From an uncultured Chloroflexia bacterium (lineage in GTDB: Bacteria > Chloroflexota > Anaerolineae > Anaerolineales > UBA4823), in contig CAWBYY010000004.1 of NCBI GenBank assembly GCA_963793095.1, forward strand, positions 195,479-259,478: a stretch of 64,000 bases of DNA, given 5' to 3'. Positions 9,375 through 60,498 of this stretch are shown here, in pieces (position 1 is the stretch's first letter; each line of letters opens with the position of its first letter). The notes beneath the pieces are model-generated. The model had not been told where the DNA came from. It worked only from the letters and a program-made list of their open reading frames with translations, and did not search any database. The position numbers and the translations under genes were made by a program.

Positions 9375-9773
9375 GGGGATGAAAGGTCTCGACGGGAGAG
9401 GCTGGCCCCGGATTGCGAGCCGAGAGGCGCCGATCTCGTAAAATCAGCGCAAACAAAAAGTGCCAATCGCACTGAATACGCTGCTCTCCCGCTTGCTGCA
9501 TAAGCGAGCCTAGGAGCGCATGATCCTCAAAGTAGGGTCACGTCCTCTTGCTCCGAACTCCGATCGGGAGCAGATGCAGGGCGACAAAAAGATTGGAGTG
9601 CTGCACGTCCATATCGCTAAACGTGAATAAGAGAAGCTTTCGGGCTTCAGCGGTTAGCCAACCGGCTTCCTTTGTTGGTCCGGGGCTGGCAGGCGAATAA
9701 CACAGATCAACTACGCTCGTAGATATCCGAGGGACGAATCTTTCGGACTCGGTTCGATTCCCGACATCTCCAC
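9375..9773 (+). ncRNA. ssrA: tmRNA (SsrA); tag reading frame GCC...TAA at 9462-9503 encodes ANRTEYAALPLAA
   Basis: 5' GGGGATG pairs with 3' CATCTCC (G3:U pair), followed by discriminator A. T-arm GGTTCGATTCCCGAC. The resume region resembles the E. coli layout (CTCGTAAAA...GCAAA...GCC). CCA is not encoded. Confidence 0.9.
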
Positions 9774-9775
9774 TA

Positions 9776-21374: not shown

Positions 21375-21398
21375 CCATTCCTTCCTAAATTCTATTAG

Positions 21399-21429
21399 TC
21401 TGTGCATTATCTTATGCACAGATTTTTTT
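21399..21429 (+). terminator. Intrinsic terminator after phoU
   Basis: TCTGTGCAT-TATCTT-ATGCACAGA followed by T7. Confidence 0.7.
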
Positions 21430-21520: not shown

Positions 21521-21889
21521 ATGGATGTAATTAAGATTATCCTTTATATTGCAGCGGCGATATTAATATTTTTTGGGGTTCTATTTATATGGGGCGCTTT
21601 CGGTCCAGAAGGTTCAACAGGTTGGATACCTGTGGGAATCATCAGTGTGGCGATTGGATTTGGTTTAATCTGGTTAGGGAGTCGCAGAGCTAGGCAATCT
21701 GAGGCTGAAGGTTCTTCTATAACTTACCAGGTCGACCTGCCAGGTAATATCGAACTCGATCAATTCAGCTGTAAATCATGTGGCGGGGCTTTAAAAACCG
21801 ACAATATTGAGATGGTTGCTGGAGCGCCGGTAGTCAATTGCCCATATTGTGGTACTTCATACCAGTTAAGTGAAGAACCAAAATGGTGA
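21521..21889 (+). CDS. Two-TM membrane protein with a C-terminal CxxC...CxxC zinc ribbon
   Basis: Two hydrophobic helices, then CKSCGG ... CPYCG. AAGGAAGCGAGG ribosome binding site. First gene after the phoU terminator. Confidence 0.5.
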   Translation: MDVIKIILYIAAAILIFFGVLFIWGAFGPEGSTGWIPVGIISVAIGFGLIWLGSRRARQSEAEGSSITYQVDLPGNIELDQFSCKSCGGALKTDNIEMVAGAPVVNCPYCGTSYQLSEEPKW

Positions 21890-21956
21890 CCTTCCGGTTG
21901 TTAGAACATTTGACCATTCATAAATAATTTAGAATATTCATCTTGCTGGAGTGCTT

Positions 21957-22637
21957 ATGAAAAAGTTATTCGTCAGCATGGTTGTTTTGAGCATTATCTT
22001 GGTTATCCCGATTCAAGTTGCCGCTCAAACGTATCTTTTCAGCCTGGATAAGTTGGATGTACATGTATTTATAGATGAGGATGGAACATATGCAATCGAC
22101 TACATTCTGGTTTTTACAAATAATCCGGCTGCTTCTCCGATCGATTTTATAGATCTTGGCTTACCAAATCCCAATTTTGATATAAACCTGATCAGCGCTG
22201 AAATCAATGGGACACCCGTGGCGGATATTTCCAAAGGAGACTATCAGGGCACCGGATCCGGCGTTGCGCTTGCTCTGGCGCAGGATTCAATTCAACCCGG
22301 AGATTCGGGAGAGGTTCATGTATATATCGAAGGTGTCAGGAGAGTGTTGTATCCGGACAGCGAAAATAATGAATACGCCAGCGCTGTATTTTCACCCGTT
22401 TATTTTGGTTCCCAATTTGTAGAGGGCGACACGGATATAACAGTGACATTCCACCTGCCTCCCGGCGTTGAGCCTGATGAACCAAAATGGCATTCAGCTC
22501 CCCAGGGTTTTCCATCTGAACCTGTAACTGGTGTTGATGGTGACGGCAGAATCACTTACACCTGGTCAAATTCACAGGCCTCTGGAGACCAGCAATACAA
22601 ATTTGGAGCTTCTTTCCCATCCAAGATACGTCTCTGA
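21957..22637 (+). CDS. Exported beta-rich protein resembling the DUF2207 N-terminal ectodomain; probably the 5' part of a gene split from 22646-23650
   Basis: Signal peptide (LFVSMVVLSIILVIPIQVAAQ). The Y.F...LDV.V.I.EDGT..I.Y pattern is typical of DUF2207-like ectodomains (from memory). It ends 8 nt before the next ORF, whose frame is open upstream. Confidence 0.5.
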   Translation: MKKLFVSMVVLSIILVIPIQVAAQTYLFSLDKLDVHVFIDEDGTYAIDYILVFTNNPAASPIDFIDLGLPNPNFDINLISAEINGTPVADISKGDYQGTGSGVALALAQDSIQPGDSGEVHVYIEGVRRVLYPDSENNEYASAVFSPVYFGSQFVEGDTDITVTFHLPPGVEPDEPKWHSAPQGFPSEPVTGVDGDGRITYTWSNSQASGDQQYKFGASFPSKIRL

Positions 22638-22645
22638 AGATAGCA

Positions 22646-23650
22646 TTGTCAGATCCGATACAAATTTCCTTAGTCTTCTGGGTATTGGCACTGAAGCGGT
22701 CTGCCCGCAAATATTCTGTTGTGGGTCAATTCTTACTTGTAGCTGGTGGAATTTATCTGTCCTACCGGAATACCAGCAAGAGAAAACTGCAGTATCTCCC
22801 GCCAAAAATTGCAATTGAAGGACATGGAATAAAGCGCGGGCTTACCGCAGTTGAAGCCGCAATTTTATTGGAACAACCGATGGAAAAGATTTTGACCATG
22901 ATTCTTTTTTCAGCAATAAAAAAAGGCGCAGCTGTTGTCGTTGAACAAGATCCCCTTACCTTACAGGTGAGTGATCCGCCTCCGGATGGATTGTATAAGT
23001 ATGAAACCGATTTCCTTGAAGCTATGCAGATGGAGAATAAGCTAGCGCGCAGAAAAGCAATGCAGGATGGGATGATCGACCTTGTAAACAGTGTAGCGAA
23101 AAAAATGAAGGGATTCAGCAGAAATGAGACCATCGCATATTATAAAGATATAGTCAATCGCGCCTGGATCCAGGTTGAAACTGCAGAGACACCTGAAGTG
23201 AAAAGCGAGAAGTTTGAAGAAAATATGGATTGGACCATGCTTGATGAGGAATACGAAGATCGCACCAGAGATATATTCCGAACGGGTCCGGTCTTCATCC
23301 CCACCTGGTGGCCCCGCTATGATCCTGGCTATGGCCAGCATATACCTTCATCACCTAGACCAGCAGGAGCGCCATTACCTTCCACCGGTACACCTGGAGC
23401 TCCTTTGCCGCAGTTACCCGGTTCGGTTTTTGCTGCCTCAATTGTCAACAGTGTTCAGAATTTTTCTAGTGAGGTGGTCGGGAATATTACCGATTTTACC
23501 AATGGAGTGACTCAGAAGACAAACCCGGTCCCTCTCGCAAGCCGGGGACGAGGAGGCAGCGGTCGAAGTTTTTCCAGCGGTGGATGCGCCTGCGCCTGTG
23601 CGTGTGCCTGCGCAGGATGCGCATGTGCCTGCGCTGGCGGCGGCAGGTAG
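22646..23650 (+). CDS. Membrane protein with a DUF2207-like cytoplasmic segment, a Pro-rich region and a C-terminal poly(Cys-Ala) tail
   Basis: TM segment GQFLLVAGGIYLSY, then KRGLTAVEAAILLEQP..., a PRPAGAPLPSTGTPGAPLP stretch, and the ending SSGGCACACACACAGCACACAGGGR. The annotated start is TTG with no ribosome binding site. Confidence 0.55.
   Translation: MSDPIQISLVFWVLALKRSARKYSVVGQFLLVAGGIYLSYRNTSKRKLQYLPPKIAIEGHGIKRGLTAVEAAILLEQPMEKILTMILFSAIKKGAAVVVEQDPLTLQVSDPPPDGLYKYETDFLEAMQMENKLARRKAMQDGMIDLVNSVAKKMKGFSRNETIAYYKDIVNRAWIQVETAETPEVKSEKFEENMDWTMLDEEYEDRTRDIFRTGPVFIPTWWPRYDPGYGQHIPSSPRPAGAPLPSTGTPGAPLPQLPGSVFAASIVNSVQNFSSEVVGNITDFTNGVTQKTNPVPLASRGRGGSGRSFSSGGCACACACACAGCACACAGGGR
23579..23647 (+). 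repeat. Coding low-complexity (TGY-GCN)n tract encoding GG-(CA)5-G-(CA)3-GGGR
   Basis: Read directly: ggt gga tgc gcc tgc gcc tgt gcg tgt gcc tgc gca gga tgc gca tgt gcc tgc gct ggc ggc ggc agg. Synonymous codons are mixed. Confidence 0.9.
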
Positions 23651-23683
23651 GATTCTAAGTTATTGAGAAGGATTAACCCACAG

Positions 23684-25030
23684 ATGAATCGTTTTCTGTC
23701 AAACATTAAAAACCGATTGCGAAATTCACAATCGGATTATGCACAACCAGGTTTGTTTCAGTACCGGAGGGAAAATATAGGTGAATCCTCCAAAATCCAT
23801 CTGCGCGTTGACAGTGATGGTTCTGGCCTTCTCATTGTTAATGCAAATAGGGTTATGCATCTGAATCCAACGGCCGCGTTTATGGCTAGATTATTTTTGG
23901 AAAACACTTCGACTGAAACTTCAATACATTTGATTAAATCCCGTTACAGAACCACTCTCGATGAAGTAAATTCTGATTATATTCAATTTAAGGACCAGAT
24001 AGAGGAATTAATCCGACCAGATGGAGCCTGTCCAATTCATGATCTTAATCTGGAAATAAACCCTCCGTTTCATGTCAAGCCAACTGCTCCATACAGGATG
24101 GATCTTGCGCTTACCTACCGGTGCAACAATGATTGCCCGCATTGTTACAACGCACGCCCCAGGAATTTTATGGAATTAGATACTCAAGAATGGAGGCAGA
24201 TCATCAGTAAACTCTGGGAGATAGGCATTCCCCACATAGTTTTTACTGGAGGTGAGCCCACGTTAAGAGGCGATTTATGTGAATTAATCTCACACGCAGA
24301 GAAGATTGGTCAGATTTCAGGATTAAACACCAATGGTCGCCGGCTTCAGGATAAGGCTTATGTCAGGGATCTGGTAAATGCTGGCCTTGACCATGTCCAG
24401 ATAACCCTGGAATCGCACCATGCCGCTATCCATGATCAAATGGTTGCATCCAGGGGCGCCTGGAATCAAACGGTAGCAGGGATAAAAAATGCCCTTGATA
24501 GCCCGCTTTATGTGATGACCAATACTACCCTCTTACAACCTAACCGCGAAGACCTGGCAGATACTATTAATTTTCTGGCGAAGTTAGGCGTTCCCACTGT
24601 TGGGATGAATGCACTCATCTACTCAGGAAAAGGTAAAAGTGTTCACACTGGGATAGACGAACGGGAATTACAGCCTTTTCTGGAAACCGCCCGTTCACTG
24701 ACACAGAAAAATAATCAAAAATTGATCTGGTACACACCAACTCAATACTGCAATTTTGATCCGGTTCAAATGGAATTAGGTGTAAAAGGTTGCACTGCTG
24801 CCCGCTACAATATGTGCATCGAACCGGATGGCAATGTACTTCCATGCCAATCTTATTACAAAACGCTCGGTAACCTCCTTTTTGATGAATGGGATTCAAT
24901 CTGGAACCATGAACTGGCAGTTACGTTGAGGGAACGAACAAATCTCCCTGACAAATGTTACCAGTGTGCGCTTTTATCTGAATGTGGTGGCGGCTGCCCA
25001 CTATATCATCAACATCTCAAAAACAACTGA
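23684..25030 (+). CDS. Radical SAM/SPASM domain enzyme with an N-terminal PqqD/RRE-like domain
   Basis: CNNDCPHC (CxxxCxxC, 24122-24145), GIPHIVFTGGEPTLR, and SPASM cysteines (CIEPDGNVLPC ... CYQCALLSECGGGC). The N-terminal roughly 110 aa resemble a PqqD-like peptide-binding domain. ATG at 23684 has a GAGAAGGA ribosome binding site. Confidence 0.85.
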   Translation: MNRFLSNIKNRLRNSQSDYAQPGLFQYRRENIGESSKIHLRVDSDGSGLLIVNANRVMHLNPTAAFMARLFLENTSTETSIHLIKSRYRTTLDEVNSDYIQFKDQIEELIRPDGACPIHDLNLEINPPFHVKPTAPYRMDLALTYRCNNDCPHCYNARPRNFMELDTQEWRQIISKLWEIGIPHIVFTGGEPTLRGDLCELISHAEKIGQISGLNTNGRRLQDKAYVRDLVNAGLDHVQITLESHHAAIHDQMVASRGAWNQTVAGIKNALDSPLYVMTNTTLLQPNREDLADTINFLAKLGVPTVGMNALIYSGKGKSVHTGIDERELQPFLETARSLTQKNNQKLIWYTPTQYCNFDPVQMELGVKGCTAARYNMCIEPDGNVLPCQSYYKTLGNLLFDEWDSIWNHELAVTLRERTNLPDKCYQCALLSECGGGCPLYHQHLKNN

Positions 25031-25086: not shown

Positions 25087-26241
25087 ATGCAAAGAATAAC
25101 CAAATCCTTTAAGAAATCAATATCTCCTGAAAAAATTGTTCAACCCGGGATTTACCAGTATCTATCACCTGCTGATGATCCTAGAAATTACCGACTGCAC
25201 TTAAGGATCGAGGTGGATGGGAATGGAATCCTGATAATTAATGCCAGCACAATCCTGCATTTAAACACGACCGCAACAGAATATGCCTATTTTCTGATAA
25301 AGAATACATCTCCAGAAATTGTAGCAAAAGAAATCTCCAGAAGGTATAAAGTTCAACCTTCTACTGCCAAAAGAGATTATCTTGATCTATCTGAAAGGAT
25401 TCAGGATCTTATAAATACACCTGATCTTGATCCTGTTTCTTTTCTGGATATGGAGCGGATTTTGCCATATAGTGGACATATCTCTGCTCCATACAGATTG
25501 GATTGTGCAATAACATATCGCCTGCCAGCATTGGATGACCCGAATTTTGCTCCCTCTGACAGGGTAGGTAAAGAATTGGACACAACAGAATGGTTAAAGA
25601 TTATTGATAAAGCATGGTCAGTTGGTATCCCACATATTGTTTTTACCGGAGGCGAACCAACCCTGAGGGATGATCTTCCGCAGCTTTTACAGCAAACCGA
25701 GAATAATGGCCAGGTGTCAGGATTGCTAACAGATGGCATCCGACTCTCGGAACCTGATTATTTAAATGAATTATTGCTCACAGGATTGGATTATGTGATG
25801 ATTGTTTACAACGACAAAAAAGAAGTAAGGGACGGACTGCAGGCATGTTTGTTGGAAGACTTATTTGTATCGGTTCATTTAACTCTTGCGGAAAATAATT
25901 TAGATGACATTACAAGTTCTATTGAAAATTTTAAATTAATCGGAGTAAAGGGAATTTCCCTCAGTGCCCAGACCCAAAACCTGGCTCCCCAGCTTGAAAA
26001 TCTTCGCAATAAGATAGCTGAGCATCAGCTTGATTTGATATGGAACCTTCCGGTCCCATATTCATCATTTAATCCAGTAAAATTTGAAACAAATTACAGG
26101 GGAAAAGAATCGGGGGAAGGTAGTGGCTGGCTTTATATAGAACCTGATGGAGATGTTTTACCTGCTCAGGGAATAAATCAGGTTCTGGGTAATTTCCTTA
26201 AGGATGATTGGAGGACTATCTGGAAAGGGCATTCTGATTGA
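25087..26241 (+). CDS. Pseudo-radical-SAM paralog lacking the CxxxCxxC and SPASM cysteines
   Basis: Collinear with the previous protein, including an identical GIPHIVFTGGEPTLR. LPALDDPN replaces CNNDCPHC and LPAQ replaces LPCQ. It ends before the CxxCx5Cx3C block and has only 2 Cys in 384 aa. Confidence 0.7.
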   Translation: MQRITKSFKKSISPEKIVQPGIYQYLSPADDPRNYRLHLRIEVDGNGILIINASTILHLNTTATEYAYFLIKNTSPEIVAKEISRRYKVQPSTAKRDYLDLSERIQDLINTPDLDPVSFLDMERILPYSGHISAPYRLDCAITYRLPALDDPNFAPSDRVGKELDTTEWLKIIDKAWSVGIPHIVFTGGEPTLRDDLPQLLQQTENNGQVSGLLTDGIRLSEPDYLNELLLTGLDYVMIVYNDKKEVRDGLQACLLEDLFVSVHLTLAENNLDDITSSIENFKLIGVKGISLSAQTQNLAPQLENLRNKIAEHQLDLIWNLPVPYSSFNPVKFETNYRGKESGEGSGWLYIEPDGDVLPAQGINQVLGNFLKDDWRTIWKGHSD

Positions 26242-27044
26242 CCCCAACTTTAACCGAATGGCATAATCGTTTCCGGCAGCAAGCCGGGTGGACCGCTGCA
26301 GTCAGGGAATATCTCTTCAATAGAATACCGGATTATTCCAATTTAAAAATCCTTGAAGTGGGAAGCGGAACAGGGGCGGTACTGGGACACTTTAGGGATG
26401 AAATCATAAATTCAAACCCAAATAATTTTACTGGCATGCAAAGCGCAAATCTGGTTGGGGTCGATATAAATCAAGAATTCCTTGCATTCGCAAAGGTTCA
26501 TTACCCATTTGTTTTTTATACTTTAGCCGATGGAATTACATTACCGTTCAATGACAATACATTTGACCTATCTTATACCCATTTTTTTCTGATGTGGTTG
26601 AGTGAACCTGTTAAAGTTCTCAAGGAGATTGTAAGAGTAACGAAACCAGGTTGTCCTGTACTCTCACTTGCAGAACCTGATTATGGCGGTCGAATTGATT
26701 ATCCCGATGATTTTAAGCCAATTTCAAAAGCGCAGAGTAATTCTCTTCAAATGCAAGGCGCAGATCCCTTCTTTGGCCGGAAATTAACTGCACACTTGGT
26801 CAAGGCAGGCCTGGTGGATATTGAAACCGGTGTATTGGGGGGAAATTGGAATAGAACGGAATTGATAAAAGATTTCAAAATTGAATGGCAATTTTTAATC
26901 TCAGATTTGCAAATGGTCAATTCAGATTTAGATTTGGAAGCGTTTCGTTTGAAAGAAGAAAAGTACCGCCAGGAAGGAGAGCGGGTATTATTCGTTCCCA
27001 CTTTTTATGCATCCGGTAAGAAACCGGATAGAGTCGCGACTTAG
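26238..27044 (+). CDS. Class I SAM-dependent methyltransferase
   Basis: ILEVGSGTGAV motif I and a downstream acidic loop. Its TTG start overlaps the previous stop (TTGA). Confidence 0.75.
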   Translation: MTPTLTEWHNRFRQQAGWTAAVREYLFNRIPDYSNLKILEVGSGTGAVLGHFRDEIINSNPNNFTGMQSANLVGVDINQEFLAFAKVHYPFVFYTLADGITLPFNDNTFDLSYTHFFLMWLSEPVKVLKEIVRVTKPGCPVLSLAEPDYGGRIDYPDDFKPISKAQSNSLQMQGADPFFGRKLTAHLVKAGLVDIETGVLGGNWNRTELIKDFKIEWQFLISDLQMVNSDLDLEAFRLKEEKYRQEGERVLFVPTFYASGKKPDRVAT

Positions 27045-29636: not shown

Positions 29637-31001
29637 TTAATAATCTGTCTTTAACCTGATCGCCTCTTGCAGGCGGTTCCGCACTCCTTCGTAAGGAATA
29701 CGCTGCATGATTGGATCAAAGAAACCCTCGATAACCAGTTTCTCAGCATCTTTTTTCGGAATGCCTCTTGTCTCCAGATAAAAAACCTGCTCAGGATCAA
29801 TTTTTCCGACAGTCGCACCATGTGTACAGCGTACATCGTCTGCAAGAATTTCTAAGCCGGGAATTGAATCAGCCCGGGACGACGCATCCAAAATTAGATT
29901 CCGGTTTGCCTGGTAGCCATCTGATTTTTGAGCGCCGGGCGCAACATAAATCATGCCCTGCCACACCGACCTGCTTTTCTCTCGTAATGCTCCTTTAAAG
30001 AGTAAATCACTGGTTGTATCGGGTGCAAAGTGGTTCTGCTGGGTATCATGATCGAGGTGCTGCTCACCATCTGTAAAATAAAAACCTGACATTCTACCTG
30101 TCGAACCTCTGCCAATCAGATCGATATCGGAAAAATTTTTTGTGAGCCGGCTTCCAATTGCGCCAAATATCCAATCGATGCTGGCATCGCGCTCTACTTT
30201 GGCGCGCTCATGGCTGAAATTCCAAACATGTTCTCCCCATGATTGCAATTCCACAAACGCTTAAATTAGAACCGGAACCTACATAAATTTCAACCACACC
30301 TGCATGTAAAGTTGAATGGTCCGGTACGGTCGGGGAGGCAGCCTCGTGCACATAGGTGGCTGATGAACCCTCTTCCAGGTAAACCATCAGATGGGTGAAG
30401 AACGCCAGCTTATCACCCGGACCCCATAAAATACTGTGTAATGGCAACTCAAGATCTACACCTCTTGGAACATAAAGCAAAACACCATTTTGTGAAAGAG
30501 CAGAGGCCAGCGCAGCAAATTTTCCTTCGTCGGATTTGACAATTTCGCCCATAATATTCTTCAGTTTTTCGGGATGCCGTTTCCGGGCTGTATTCAAATC
30601 TGTAAAGATCACTCCTGTCTCTTCAAGTTGCAGGTTGCTGTCGATTTTCACGCCTGTGGGTGTAAATATAATTTGGCCACCGTGTGTGGTTCCCGCAAGA
30701 GGCCGAAGCAATTCTTCCGGTACTGCCGGCAATTCTGATTTCATCAATCTTCTGCAATTCTGGCAGAAGGAAATCCCCTGCAGGTAATGACCTCAAATCG
30801 GTTCTGCGCCATGCTTCTTCCTGGGTGGTAGGTATCGGAATATTGATAAAATCGTTCCAGGCTCTAGCGCGAATATTCTTTAAAAAATTCTGGGGTTTCG
30901 CCGTTCCCCGAGATTGTGGTGAACATTTCCCTGGTAAAGGGAAAATGTTTTTGTACTGATGTTGAACTTTTCTTTCTGGTAATTACTTTCTTATTCGCCA
31001 T
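29637..31001 (-). pseudogene. sufD: Fe-S cluster assembly protein SufD, split by 3 frameshifts as sequenced
   Basis: ATG at 31001 lies 2 nt after the sufB stop. Pieces read in four frames: MANKKV...PEFF / IRARAWNDFINIPIPTTQEEAWRRTDL / ORF 30208-30747 / ORF 29637-30254. Junctions include a T6 run (about 30875) and a TTT run (30255-30257). Confidence 0.8.
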
Positions 31002-31003
31002 TA

Positions 31004-32408
31004 TTAACCAATAGATCCTTCCATTTGCAGTTGTATCAAGCGGTTCATTTCGATTGCATATTCCATTGGTAATTCTTTAACCAGCGGTTCAATGAAACCA
31101 GAAACAACCATTGTCGTCGCTTCTTCCTCGCTCAATCCCCGACTCATCAGGTAAAATAGCTGTTCTTCACCGACTTTCGAAACAGATGCTTCATGCCCAA
31201 TTGTTACATCGTCCTCATCAATTTCGATATATGGATATGTATCTGATCGGGAATGTTCATCCAGCAATAATGCATCACACACTACATTTGAACGAACATT
31301 TTTAGCACCTTTATGTACTTTCAATAATCCCCTGATATGAGGCGCGTCCAGAGCCTTTGCTGATTGATTTTGAGGTGATTTTGCTGCTCGTGTTAGGAGC
31401 AAAATGAATCACTTTCCCACCAGCGTCCTGATGTTGTCCTTCCCCGGCAAATGCCATTGAAAGAATTTCACCATGCGCTCCCGGACCTAATAGATAACAA
31501 GATGGGTATTTCATCGTCATTTTTGAACCCAAATTTGCATCAACCCATTCCATTGTAGCGCCTTCATACACCAGTGCACGTTGGGTCACCAGGTTATATA
31601 CATTAGTAGACCAATTCTGGATGGTTGTGTATCGCACACGAGCATTCTTCTTCACAATGATCTCAATCACCCCGCTGTGGAATGAATCAGTCGTATAAAT
31701 TGGAGCAGTGCAGCCCTCAACATAGTGAACTTGTGCACCTTCATCAGCGATGATTAAAGTTCGTTCAAATTGTCCGATATTGGCGATATTCAACCGGAAA
31801 TATGCCTGCAAAGGCAAATCCACCTTTACACCTTTGGGAATATAAATAAATGAGCCACCAGACCAGACCGCACTATTTAAAGCTGCAAATTTATTATCTT
31901 CAATTGGAATTACCGTACCAAAGTATTCTCGAAAAAGTTCTGGATGTTCACGCAAACCATCTTCGATGCTCAGAAAAATTACTCCCTGTTCTTCCAGGTG
32001 CTCCTGTACCTGTGGTAAACCATTTCGGATTCATATTGCGCTCCAACACCAGCAAGAAATTTCTGTTCAGCTTCGGGGATTCCCAAGTTTGTCAAAAGTA
32101 TTCTTTATTGTTTCAGGAACATCATCCCAGCTATTACTTTCTGCTTCAGTGGGTTTGACATAGTAGTAAATATCATCCAGGTCCAGTGATGATAGATCAG
32201 CCCCCCAGCCTGGCATGGGTCGCACCATAAAATGTTCGAGAGCTTTCATGCGGAATTCCAGCATCCATTCTGGCTCTCCCTTCATGGCTGAAATTTGTGC
32301 GACAATTTCTTGATCCAGACCTTTCCGTGATTTAAAAACATAAGTTTCGGGATCTTTAAACCCGTATTGATATTCTCCTATACCTTCCAAAATTTGAGCA
32401 TCGCTCAT
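31004..32408 (-). pseudogene. sufB: Fe-S cluster assembly protein SufB, split by 3 frameshifts as sequenced
   Basis: GGAGG ribosome binding site before the ATG at 32408. The sequence is highly conserved ([48 protein letters not shown]). Breaks are at a GGG run (32082-32084), near 32008-32016, and at a GGGG run (31329-31332). Confidence 0.85.
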
Positions 32409-32459: not shown

Positions 32460-33233
32460 CTACTGTGGGAATCTTCCGCTTTTTTGTTTAATCCAGTCAT
32501 ATCCTTGTTCTTCAAGCTGCAGGGCGAGTTCAGGTCCCCCAGTTTCAACTACCTGCCCATCCAGCATGATATGGACAAAATCTGGTTTTATGTAATTTAA
32601 TATTCTCTGGTAATGTGTAATAACAAGCACTCCAAATTCAGGACGATCGAAGAGCATTAACACCTTCGGAGACAATTCTTAATGCATCGATATCCAAGCC
32701 AGAATCTGTTTCATCCATCAATGCAATTTCGGGCTGCAATGTTGCCATCTGTAGCACTTCAGCTCTTTTCTTCTCACCACCAGAAAACCCTTCATTCAGA
32801 TAGCGGCCGGCGAAAGAATGATCCATTTTTAACAAATCCATTTTCTGCTTTAATGTTTTCGAAATTCTGGGATCGGAATTCCTTTATCATCTGGATCATC
32901 AGCTTTCCGCTCCGCGTTAATAGCAGTTCTTAAAAAATTCGCAACTGAAACTCCCGGAATTGCAACAGGATATTGAAATGCAAGAAATAGTCCCAAGTGG
33001 GCACGTTCATTTGGTTCCAATTCAATAATATTTTGACCTTTGAACCATACTTCTCCAGTTGTTACTTCATAATTGGGATGTCCCATAAGCGAGTATGCCA
33101 GGGTGGACTTCCCGGTTCCGTTTGGTCCCATGAGCGCGTGGACTTCGCCTTGTCTTACTGTAAGATTTACACCTTTTAGAATCTCTTTATCTTCGACACT
33201 TACATGAAGATCATTAATTACTAATTCAGACAT
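32460..33233 (-). pseudogene. sufC: Fe-S cluster assembly ATPase SufC, split by 2 frameshifts as sequenced
   Basis: Walker [43 protein letters not shown]. Breaks are near 32849-32855 and 32640-32647. Confidence 0.85.
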
Positions 33234-60341: not shown

Positions 60342-60347
60342 CTGTAA

Positions 60348-60429
60348 TGCGCTGGGAGGGAGTTGAACCCTCACGCCTTGCGGCACATGGCCCTCAACCA
60401 TGCCTGTCTGCCAATTCCAGCACCAGCGC
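60348..60429 (-). tRNA. tRNA-Leu, anticodon GAG
   Basis: Hand-folded cloverleaf: acceptor GCGCTGG/CCAGCGC, anticodon stem CATGG/CCATG with loop TTGAGGG, a 13-nt variable arm, T-arm GAGGG-TTCAACT-CCCTC, discriminator A. CCA is not encoded. Confidence 0.9.
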
Positions 60430-60498
60430 ATATACTCCGGTATTATAATCTGCCCTTGATCATTGTCAAGAATACCCAATTTTCCATAAGGAGACGCC

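Follow-up and report, generated by a model that had tools for sequence, protein, structure and literature searches.

Homologues of radical S-adenosylmethionine (rSAM) enzymes that lack the CX3CX2C motif, the pseudo-rSAM proteins, have been named before, in the haloarchaeal NCBIfam family TIGR04347 ("pseudo-SAM/SPASM protein") and in InterPro entry IPR026418. No protein of this kind has an experimentally assigned function; they are hypothesised to act in partnership with rSAM enzymes, and for IPR026418, which covers the pseudo-rSAM of the GG-Bacteroidales system, co-occurrence of its members with a precursor peptide and a true rSAM enzyme is noted (PMC10352776). Our literature searches brought up no characterised pseudo-rSAM partner beyond that remark on IPR026418 (PMC10352776). 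Here we describe another such protein, encoded at 25087..26241 (+) of a 64,000-nucleotide stretch of DNA (the window) from an uncultured Chloroflexia bacterium of the order Anaerolineales (contig CAWBYY010000004.1, positions 195,479 to 259,478). The 384-residue product, a Cys-less paralogue of the rSAM/SPASM enzyme encoded directly upstream, is referred to below as the pseudo-rSAM. It belongs to a conserved five-gene cassette that encodes, in order, a small transmembrane/zinc-ribbon protein, a tail-bearing membrane protein, an rSAM/SPASM enzyme with a recognition element (RRE) for peptides ribosomally synthesised and modified post-translationally (RiPPs), the pseudo-rSAM, and a methyltransferase. 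With moderate confidence, we read the pseudo-rSAM as a cofactor-less, non-catalytic, RRE-bearing accessory subunit of a maturase system that would act on the tail of the membrane protein. An earlier note on this DNA had called pairs of active and pseudo-rSAM proteins rare, a description that needs qualification given the partners already named in the two families above.

The pseudo-rSAM resembles TIGR04347 and IPR026418 in being an rSAM homologue without CX3CX2C. Its family differs from these curated families in its fused RRE, in its occurrence in Anaerolineae, and in its presumed substrate, the tail of a 560-residue membrane protein rather than a small peptide. Against TIGR04347 the pseudo-rSAM scores 40.3 bits, the cut-off being 525, and related archaeal Cys-less proteins score 28-106 bits; judged by its family name, TIGR04347 also keeps the SPASM domain that the present family has lost. 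The GG-Bacteroidales pseudo-rSAM (IPR026418) was not among the 25 best of 33 NCBIfam matches, the rest of which were below 20 bits, the InterPro model itself not having been run, and the gene context holds neither a small GG-leader peptide nor a PCAT transporter. PqqE (TIGR02109) is missed as well (63 bits against a cut-off of 381), and no pqq genes lie nearby.

The domain order, RRE followed by rSAM barrel and SPASM, is that of SkfB, SuiB, AlbA, CteB, and PqqE/PqqD. Unlike such RRE-rSAM RiPP maturases, however, the pseudo-rSAM has no Fe-S ligand at all, and its active neighbour stays under all curated maturase cut-offs. In PqqA/PqqE and MftA/MftC an RRE-linked rSAM/SPASM enzyme acts on an invariant C-terminal sequence. 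The cassette shares with the PQQ and mycofactocin systems the combination of an invariant C-terminal sequence and an RRE-rSAM/SPASM enzyme, with PqqE as the top match, but there the precursors are short peptides cleaved to a small molecule, whereas here no protease is encoded and the carrier is a membrane protein. The position of the rSAM gene immediately after a Cys-rich C-terminal core sequence recalls the sactipeptides and ranthipeptides, while the tail differs from hypervariable RiPP cores in being invariant across two domains of life and in sitting on a large membrane protein. Another likeness is found in a paper on thuricin CD, in which TrnC and TrnD are both called radical SAM enzymes (PMC12093266): as described there, two paralogous rSAM proteins encoded side by side act together on Cys-containing substrates, but the present pair differs in having one dead partner. 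No curated family matched the present pseudo-rSAM family, its candidate substrate, or its cross-domain spread, and the literature searched gave no match for them. In kind the system is familiar, a dead paralogue beside an rSAM maturase; its unusual candidate substrate carrier, its cross-domain spread, and the convergent origin are new.

The upstream open reading frame (ORF; 23663..25030 (+), 455 residues) encodes an active rSAM/SPASM enzyme with an N-terminal PqqD-like RRE. Its true start is likely the ATG at 23684, which gives a protein of 448 residues. Its Pfam scores are 91.7 bits for Radical_SAM, 38.4 bits for SPASM, and a weak 20.6 bits for PqqD; both CX3CX2C and CX2CX5CX3C are present, and no NCBIfam cut-off is reached (best scores NirJ2, 134 bits, and PqqE, 125 bits). 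The pseudo-rSAM aligns with it at 34% identity and 51% positives over 410 columns (BLASTP, E 4e-78), a score that puts the likeness far beyond chance. The alignment covers residues 1-379 of 384, which bears out the end-to-end paralogy claimed in the earlier note, and the motif pairs quoted there were all found (APYRLDCAITYR versus APYRMDLALTYR, the identical GIPHIVFTGGEPTLR, and YIEPDGDVLPAQ versus CIEPDGNVLPCQ).

The same alignment confirms that CNNDCPHC, the CX3CX2C cluster loop, is replaced by LPALDDPN (25522..25545 (+)). Only two cysteines occur in the pseudo-rSAM, C140 and C254, both outside any cluster motif, and none of the eight SPASM-region cysteines is retained. The early stop and the loss of the SPASM cysteines, also claimed before, were found as described, the protein ending about 36 residues ahead of the CX2CX5CX3C block of the active paralogue; what is left of the SPASM/twitch region is a Cys-free beta-hairpin (EPDGDVLPAQ) and one helix (26119..26238 (+)). 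When the family consensus of 83 Cys-less orthologues was compared with that of 63 active ones, two further 14-residue deletions were seen in the rSAM core, at the ESHDxxIHDxMVxxRGAW loop and the NALIYSGRGxxVGTG loop. What remains in the pseudo-rSAM is thus the RRE, a partial TIM barrel, and a SPASM stub; with the three Fe-S sites all gone, along with two SAM-contacting loops, the protein cannot generate a 5'-deoxyadenosyl radical. On this evidence it cannot be a canonical rSAM enzyme. Its Pfam matches are in line with such a remnant: PF04055 (Radical_SAM) is matched at 39.3 bits (cut-off 29.5) over residues 157-239 only, and PF13186 (SPASM) reaches 17.1 bits, under the cut-off of 21.5.

The GGE motif (25648..25656 (+)) lies within the 15-mer GIPHIVFTGGEPTLR common to both paralogues. 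In the two genes, 13 of the 45 nucleotides that encode the 15-mer differ and every change is synonymous, which rules out gene conversion as the source of the identity and shows that selection maintains the peptide. The claim that GGE is kept holds for this protein and for most members of the family but not universally: a distant bacterial lineage (L087; locus numbers are ours) has YGDEPT in its place, and six of the distant representatives, toward 31% identity, have also lost GGE. In the L087 lineage both GGE and EPDGDVLP are gone while cassette and tail are intact, and several other distant representatives lack both motifs too. Retention of GGE does not imply SAM binding, given that further loops in contact with SAM are deleted and that some lineages have lost GGE itself. 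Of 120 close homologues, 119 share Cys140 (25504-25506), which lies on strand beta1 (APYRLDCA) immediately ahead of the missing cluster loop; Leu occupies the matching position in the active paralogue.

The N-terminal RRE-like domain that had been proposed for the pseudo-rSAM is supported by several methods. PqqD-like, it spans residues ~18-110 (25138..25416 (+)), as judged by secondary structure in an AlphaFold2 (AF2) model, a match to TfuB1, and conserved columns. The model, computed from a 42-sequence alignment, is of high confidence (predicted local distance difference test (pLDDT) 87.5, predicted TM-score 0.85), and like the other AF2 models described here it carries no cofactors. It consists of RRE-like strands (residues 21-59) and three helices (61-110), a disordered linker, six beta/alpha units (137-312), and a beta-hairpin with a terminal helix, which in the model corresponds to a SPASM/twitch stub. 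The closest structures in the PDB found with Foldseek were PqqE (6c8v, E 4e-13), SkfB (6efn, E 6e-13, TM-score 0.62), and SuiB (5v1q, E 1e-11). A family profile search of PDB sequences also returned PqqE (6c8v) and SkfB (6efn), and matched residues 56-106 to the discrete RRE protein TfuB1 (6jx3, E 5e-5). A Pfam scan of the pseudo-rSAM sequence alone gave no PqqD match at E<0.01; PqqD (PF05402) is, however, among the precomputed domains of several orthologues. In the 42 sequences, which reach down to 28% identity, the most conserved columns are those of the RRE (RLHLR, LHLNxTA) and of GIPHxxFTGGEPT; the longer GIPHxxFTGGEPTLRxDL is at least 90% conserved. Conservation is seen for EPDGDVLPxQ as well.

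We observed the same gene order around the pseudo-rSAM in three near-identical contigs and in two loci at ~57% identity. Synteny was then counted by tblastn, on the same strand, over 80 species-level loci, of which 62 have at least 4 kb upstream and 75 at least 1.2 kb downstream. Upstream, the ~560-residue membrane protein was present in 61 of the 62 informative loci, the 122-residue transmembrane/zinc-ribbon protein in 60, and the active rSAM enzyme in 57; downstream, a class I methyltransferase was found in 68 of 75 loci, at a distance of no more than 150 nt in 43. The first gene of the cassette (21521..21889 (+)) encodes the small membrane protein of 122 residues, with two predicted transmembrane helices and a C-terminal CxxC...CxxC zinc ribbon, and gave only weak zinc-ribbon matches in Pfam and NCBIfam. 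The last gene (26238..27044 (+)) encodes a class I SAM-dependent methyltransferase of 268 residues (Methyltransf_11, 59 bits), and in the window its TTG start overlaps the stop codon of the pseudo-rSAM gene (TTGA). The active enzyme, like both the small and the tail-bearing membrane protein, is covered by no curated family. The pst/phoU and suf/Rieske neighbours were rejected as parts of the cassette, being conserved in a subset of loci only, and a known defence system was rejected too, PADLOC giving only generic viperin and methyltransferase superfamily matches.

The candidate substrate lies in the product of the second gene (21951..23650 (+)), which is intact in the near-identical contig L001, where it encodes 563 residues. 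The protein carries a signal peptide; in its AF2 model an extracellular beta-sandwich (pLDDT >90) is followed by one transmembrane helix, then by helices that form a cytoplasmic domain, and finally by a disordered C-terminus. Neither Pfam nor NCBIfam gave a match, even at E<=5, and a suspected resemblance to DUF2207 or TIGR04222 proteins with Gly/Cys-rich tails could not be confirmed and is not claimed. The structures closest to the ectodomain (21951-22637) are ribophorin I/OST1 of the eukaryotic oligosaccharyltransferase and the N-domains of M1 aminopeptidases (Foldseek E ~1e-7 to 1e-6); this likeness is of some interest since the membrane protein occurs in Asgard archaea too.

The protein ends in an invariant tail, CACACACAGCACACAGGGR (23591..23650 (+), stop codon included), which the earlier note, centred on the pseudo-rSAM, had left unseen although this (CA)n sequence, the probable substrate, lies just upstream. 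These last 19 residues are identical in ~72 of 75 genome loci and in 118 of 120 protein clusters whose members are 43-85% identical elsewhere, and also in most Asgard homologues. The codons, in contrast to the peptide, are scrambled: TGT and TGC are used at about 1:1, and all four GCN, all Gly, six Arg, and three stop codons occur. Conservation at the level of DNA or RNA is thereby ruled out, and the constraint must act on the peptide. A degenerate-DNA scan of metagenome contigs for the tail gave at least 120 loci; among those listed, every readable upstream ORF belongs to this membrane-protein family, and in 58 of the 80 scan loci with at least 1.5 kb downstream the active rSAM gene starts within ~260 nt after the tail. 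Such an arrangement, a tail followed by an rSAM gene, has the appearance of a precursor-and-maturase layout, and suggests that the tail would be the substrate of the rSAM/SPASM enzyme. Full-text literature searches found nothing on the tail motif. Some genomes (L036:2060-4378; L037:1902-4178; L021 near position 51; L169; L192) also encode, in tandem with the 560-residue protein, a second tail-bearing paralogue of 758-772 residues, in which the extracellular domain is duplicated and the C-terminus is again CACACACAGCACACAGGGR.

From the signal peptide and a basic stretch after the transmembrane helix (RNTSKRK), the tail is predicted to lie in the cytoplasm, where enzymes could reach it. Ahead of it, a conserved amphipathic segment of nearly invariant alignment columns (LPGSxFAASxVxxVQNFSSxVxGNxTDFTxxVTxKTNPxP, 23414..23533 (+)) is separated from the tail by a variable Gly/Ser/Arg linker, and can be aligned to the Asgard proteins, in which it reads xFSDSIVRGxENxSNxIVxNFxxFAxxIVxxVxP. 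This leader-like segment is a candidate binding site for the RRE. A putative recognition segment, a linker, and a core encoded beside an RRE-bearing maturase would fit the layout of a RiPP-like rSAM cassette.

The cassette recurs in Asgard archaea, in homologues named Lokiarchaeota, Promethearchaeota, Helarchaeales, and Heimdallarchaeaceae. There it comprises a transmembrane/zinc-ribbon protein of 126-128 residues, which holds the same position in L093 and L094, a membrane protein of 629-657 residues with the identical tail, one or more rSAM genes, and, last, an orthologous methyltransferase. The membrane proteins of Asgard archaea and Anaerolineae share only 24.6% identity outside the tail. 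L094 has one active rSAM enzyme and no pseudo-rSAM. L092 and L093, by contrast, have an extra rSAM copy between the membrane protein and the active enzyme; it is full-length and has three cysteines but neither CX3CX2C nor the SPASM motif. This copy is 49-50% identical to the active enzyme of L094 and 41-42% to the co-resident active enzyme, but only 28-30% to the Anaerolineae pseudo-rSAM, itself closest (34%) to its own neighbour. As the dead copies of each domain are closest to the active enzymes of that same domain, the pairwise identities indicate that dead paralogues arose at least twice, independently, within the cassette system. A crude neighbour-joining tree grouped some of the Cys-less lineages, but a single origin of all of them is contradicted by these identities for the Asgard and Anaerolineae copies. 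Convergent pairs of active and dead enzymes argue that the non-catalytic copy has a selectable function.

More distant archaeal relatives form two-gene units (L089:5745-8383 and L090:1672-4754), in which a tail-less homologue of the membrane protein is followed by an rSAM-like protein without CX3CX2C. With hhalign, the homologues, which lack the C-terminal region together with the tail, were matched over residues ~20-455 (probabilities 99.4 and 98.6; E 1.5e-21 and 1.1e-15). One of the rSAM-like partners, P0210, keeps CX2CX5CX3C, and another, P0189, is fully degenerate. Together with the variant bacterial loci described below, these units suggest that the oldest partnership may have been that between the rSAM lineage and the cytoplasmic part of the membrane protein.

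Taken together, the data lead us to propose that the RRE of the pseudo-rSAM would bind the membrane protein at its leader-like segment, its cytoplasmic domain, or both, while the cofactor-less barrel of the pseudo-rSAM would hold the Cys-rich tail; the tail would thus be presented to, or chaperoned for, the active rSAM/SPASM enzyme and also the methyltransferase, which is translationally coupled. The target of the cassette would be the cytoplasmic C-terminus with its leader-like segment, Gly/Ser linker, and invariant CACACACAGCACACAGGGR core. We infer all three of the physical interaction, the identity of the tail as substrate, and the chemistry; the "substrate-presenting or scaffolding" role suggested in the earlier note would be of the same kind. 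By analogy with sactipeptides and ranthipeptides, the most likely chemistry would be Cys-derived thioether cross-linking; oxidation of Cys to formylglycine, as by enzymes of the anSME type, is possible, as is binding of a metal or a cluster by the seven thiols of the tail. A fuller version, which we offer tentatively, has the rSAM/SPASM enzyme and the methyltransferase turn the (CA)4-G-(CA)3-GGGR end of a ribophorin-like membrane protein into a thioether-ladder or metal/cluster hairpin, with a dead paralogue recruited twice as peptide holder in a system spread through Asgard archaea and Anaerolineae. More speculatively, the single Gly could be a hairpin turn, placing each Cys opposite an Ala of the other strand (pairs 3-15, 4-14, 5-13, 6-12, 7-11, and 8-10).

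Several observations weigh against a role in tail maturation. The Asgard cassette of L094 exists without any pseudo-rSAM, which makes the latter accessory rather than essential. In L040, L042, L063, and L022 the pseudo-rSAM gene comes straight after that of the membrane protein, and a divergent enzyme encoded several kilobases off, on the opposite strand, is the nearest active rSAM, while in L069 the pseudo-rSAM gene stands alone among housekeeping genes. The tail-less homologues paired with Cys-less rSAM-like proteins in other archaea may point to a partnership with the cytoplasmic domain rather than to tail maturation, and the strong conservation of GIPHxxFTGGEPTLR and of C140 may indicate that the protein still binds a metal or a small molecule.

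One alternative is that the pseudo-rSAM gene is a recent duplicate in decay, confined to this strain, or an indel artefact of assembly; neighbouring genes of the window do have frameshifting single-base indels. The gene is intact, however, and three independent contigs encode the same protein at 100% identity. The 120 closest database clusters (54-100% identity), whose named members are Chloroflexota or Anaerolineales, are 377-410 residues long (nearly all 377-391) with one Cys conserved, at position 140; like the pseudo-rSAM itself, not one of them has CX3CX2C. An exhaustive profile-free search of 1.8 billion representatives extended the family to ~31% identity, again without CX3CX2C in any of ~27 Cys-less representatives (369-404 residues). 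In a scan of one genome per GTDB species, at least 569 genomes encode a relative, and the best 80 are all metagenome-assembled genomes (MAGs) of Anaerolineales, Anaerolineae, or Chloroflexota, including Anaerolinea thermophila, Bellilinea, and Brevefilum; nearly all sequences compared here come from MAGs. Orthologues in 80 other genomes end at the same place, so the shortened C-terminus is not due to indel errors in the window. The ratio of non-synonymous to synonymous substitution rates (dN/dS), a simple pairwise Nei-Gojobori estimate for pairs with unsaturated dS, was 0.034, 0.046, 0.065, 0.075, 0.109, 0.110, and 0.246, far from the value of 1 expected of a gene in decay and comparable to that of the active paralogue in the same genome pairs (0.058-0.176). 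Neither of the two outcomes that the earlier note had named as speaking against its view, orthologues with the CX3CX2C motif and a dN/dS near 1, was seen. The family-wide loss of the cysteines, the same-length orthologues in at least 569 species-level genomes, and these ratios, to which the high-confidence AF2 model adds, rule out decay or artefact for practical purposes.

A more serious competitor, though in our view an unlikely one, has the pseudo-rSAM serve the membrane protein itself, as its partner or regulator in the cytoplasm or as one of its structural subunits, binding its cytoplasmic helical domain with no presentation of the tail to the active enzyme; the membrane protein would be a signalling or assembly module, and tail maturation a separate add-on. 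The pseudo-rSAM is linked to the membrane protein in 61 of 62 loci, against 57 of 62 for the active rSAM; this tighter linkage and the tail-less archaeal pairs of L089 and L090, in which the rSAM-like gene overlaps or abuts the end of its neighbour, are the reasons why the membrane protein may be the primary partner, and the four loci in which the two genes are adjacent agree with this. The archaeal contigs are short (6-9 kb), however, and an active enzyme may lie elsewhere; moreover, the RRE that the pseudo-rSAM retains is a domain specialised for binding extended peptides, and in its degree of conservation the leader-like peptide equals the cytoplasmic domain. The Asgard dead copy also descends from a gene that in L094 is the sole active maturase, which fits a role in the same process. 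Less probable still is that the protein remains an enzyme or a sensor, binding SAM, S-adenosylhomocysteine, or another ligand at the GGE strand without a cluster, for non-radical chemistry or for a SAM-gated pathway. The near-invariance of GIPHxxFTGGEPTLRxDL, the same in the active paralogue despite the nucleotide differences noted above, and the conservation of EPDGDVLPxQ and C140 would be explained in this way. Canonical rSAM enzymes, however, anchor SAM through the unique iron of their cluster; here that cluster is absent and two further core loops are deleted, GGE and EPDGDVLP are lost in the L087 lineage and in several representatives whose cassette and tail stay intact, and the cassette already encodes a dedicated methyltransferase.

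If the tail-maturation reading is true, the cassette is a natural model for pseudo-rSAM function. The candidate substrate is obvious and extremely constrained, 19 residues invariant between bacteria and archaea, and natural controls exist in cassettes that have no dead paralogue, a young full-length one, or an old truncated one. One member of the pseudo-rSAM family is assigned to Anaerolinea thermophila, a cultured species. Modification of the tail would mean a rare case of RiPP-type radical chemistry on a large, housekeeping-like membrane protein, and would link Asgard archaea and Anaerolineae by a shared, probably horizontally exchanged, cell-envelope module.

Some variants of the cassette were seen along the way. 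The divergent rSAM/SPASM protein of L040 (10842-13423, minus strand; similar in L042, L063, and L022) has 562 residues, 41% identity, and a Gly/Cys-rich C-terminal extension (GGGGCSGCSGSCATG...). Its gene is preceded by one for a 298-residue, tail-less homologue of the transmembrane and cytoplasmic parts of the membrane protein, and adjoins the methyltransferase gene. In about a dozen genomes a same-strand insert of ~2.3 kb separates the active rSAM gene from the pseudo-rSAM gene (e.g. L036:5808-7966; also L028-L031, L034, L038, L044, L045, L058, L062, and L070). From reading of the translations alone, its products resemble a CDP-alcohol phosphatidyltransferase (206 residues), a lysophospholipid/lauroyl acyltransferase (303 residues), and a PAP2 phosphatase (207 residues), which may hint at a link to membrane lipids. 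In the window, a strong terminator-like hairpin (21397-21424 (+), an 11-bp stem followed by a T-run) stands directly after phoU and upstream of the cassette, overlapped by a promoter-like site, which suggests separate transcription of the cassette and pstCAB-phoU.

Compared with the 98.8%-identical contig L001, the window contains single-base indels at places where mismatches also cluster. Two of the indels, insertions at 22619 and 22732, split the membrane-protein gene into three ORFs; sufD and sufB are broken by indels and sufC is also fragmented (30259-32082; 32460-33233). Since essential SUF genes are hit, the indels look like assembly or sequencing errors and not like real pseudogenes; the pseudo-rSAM ORF itself is unaffected. 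Only two structured RNAs were detected in the window, a tmRNA at 9375-9775 (+) (Rfam RF00023, 138.6 bits) and a tRNA-Leu(GAG) at 60347-60430 (-).

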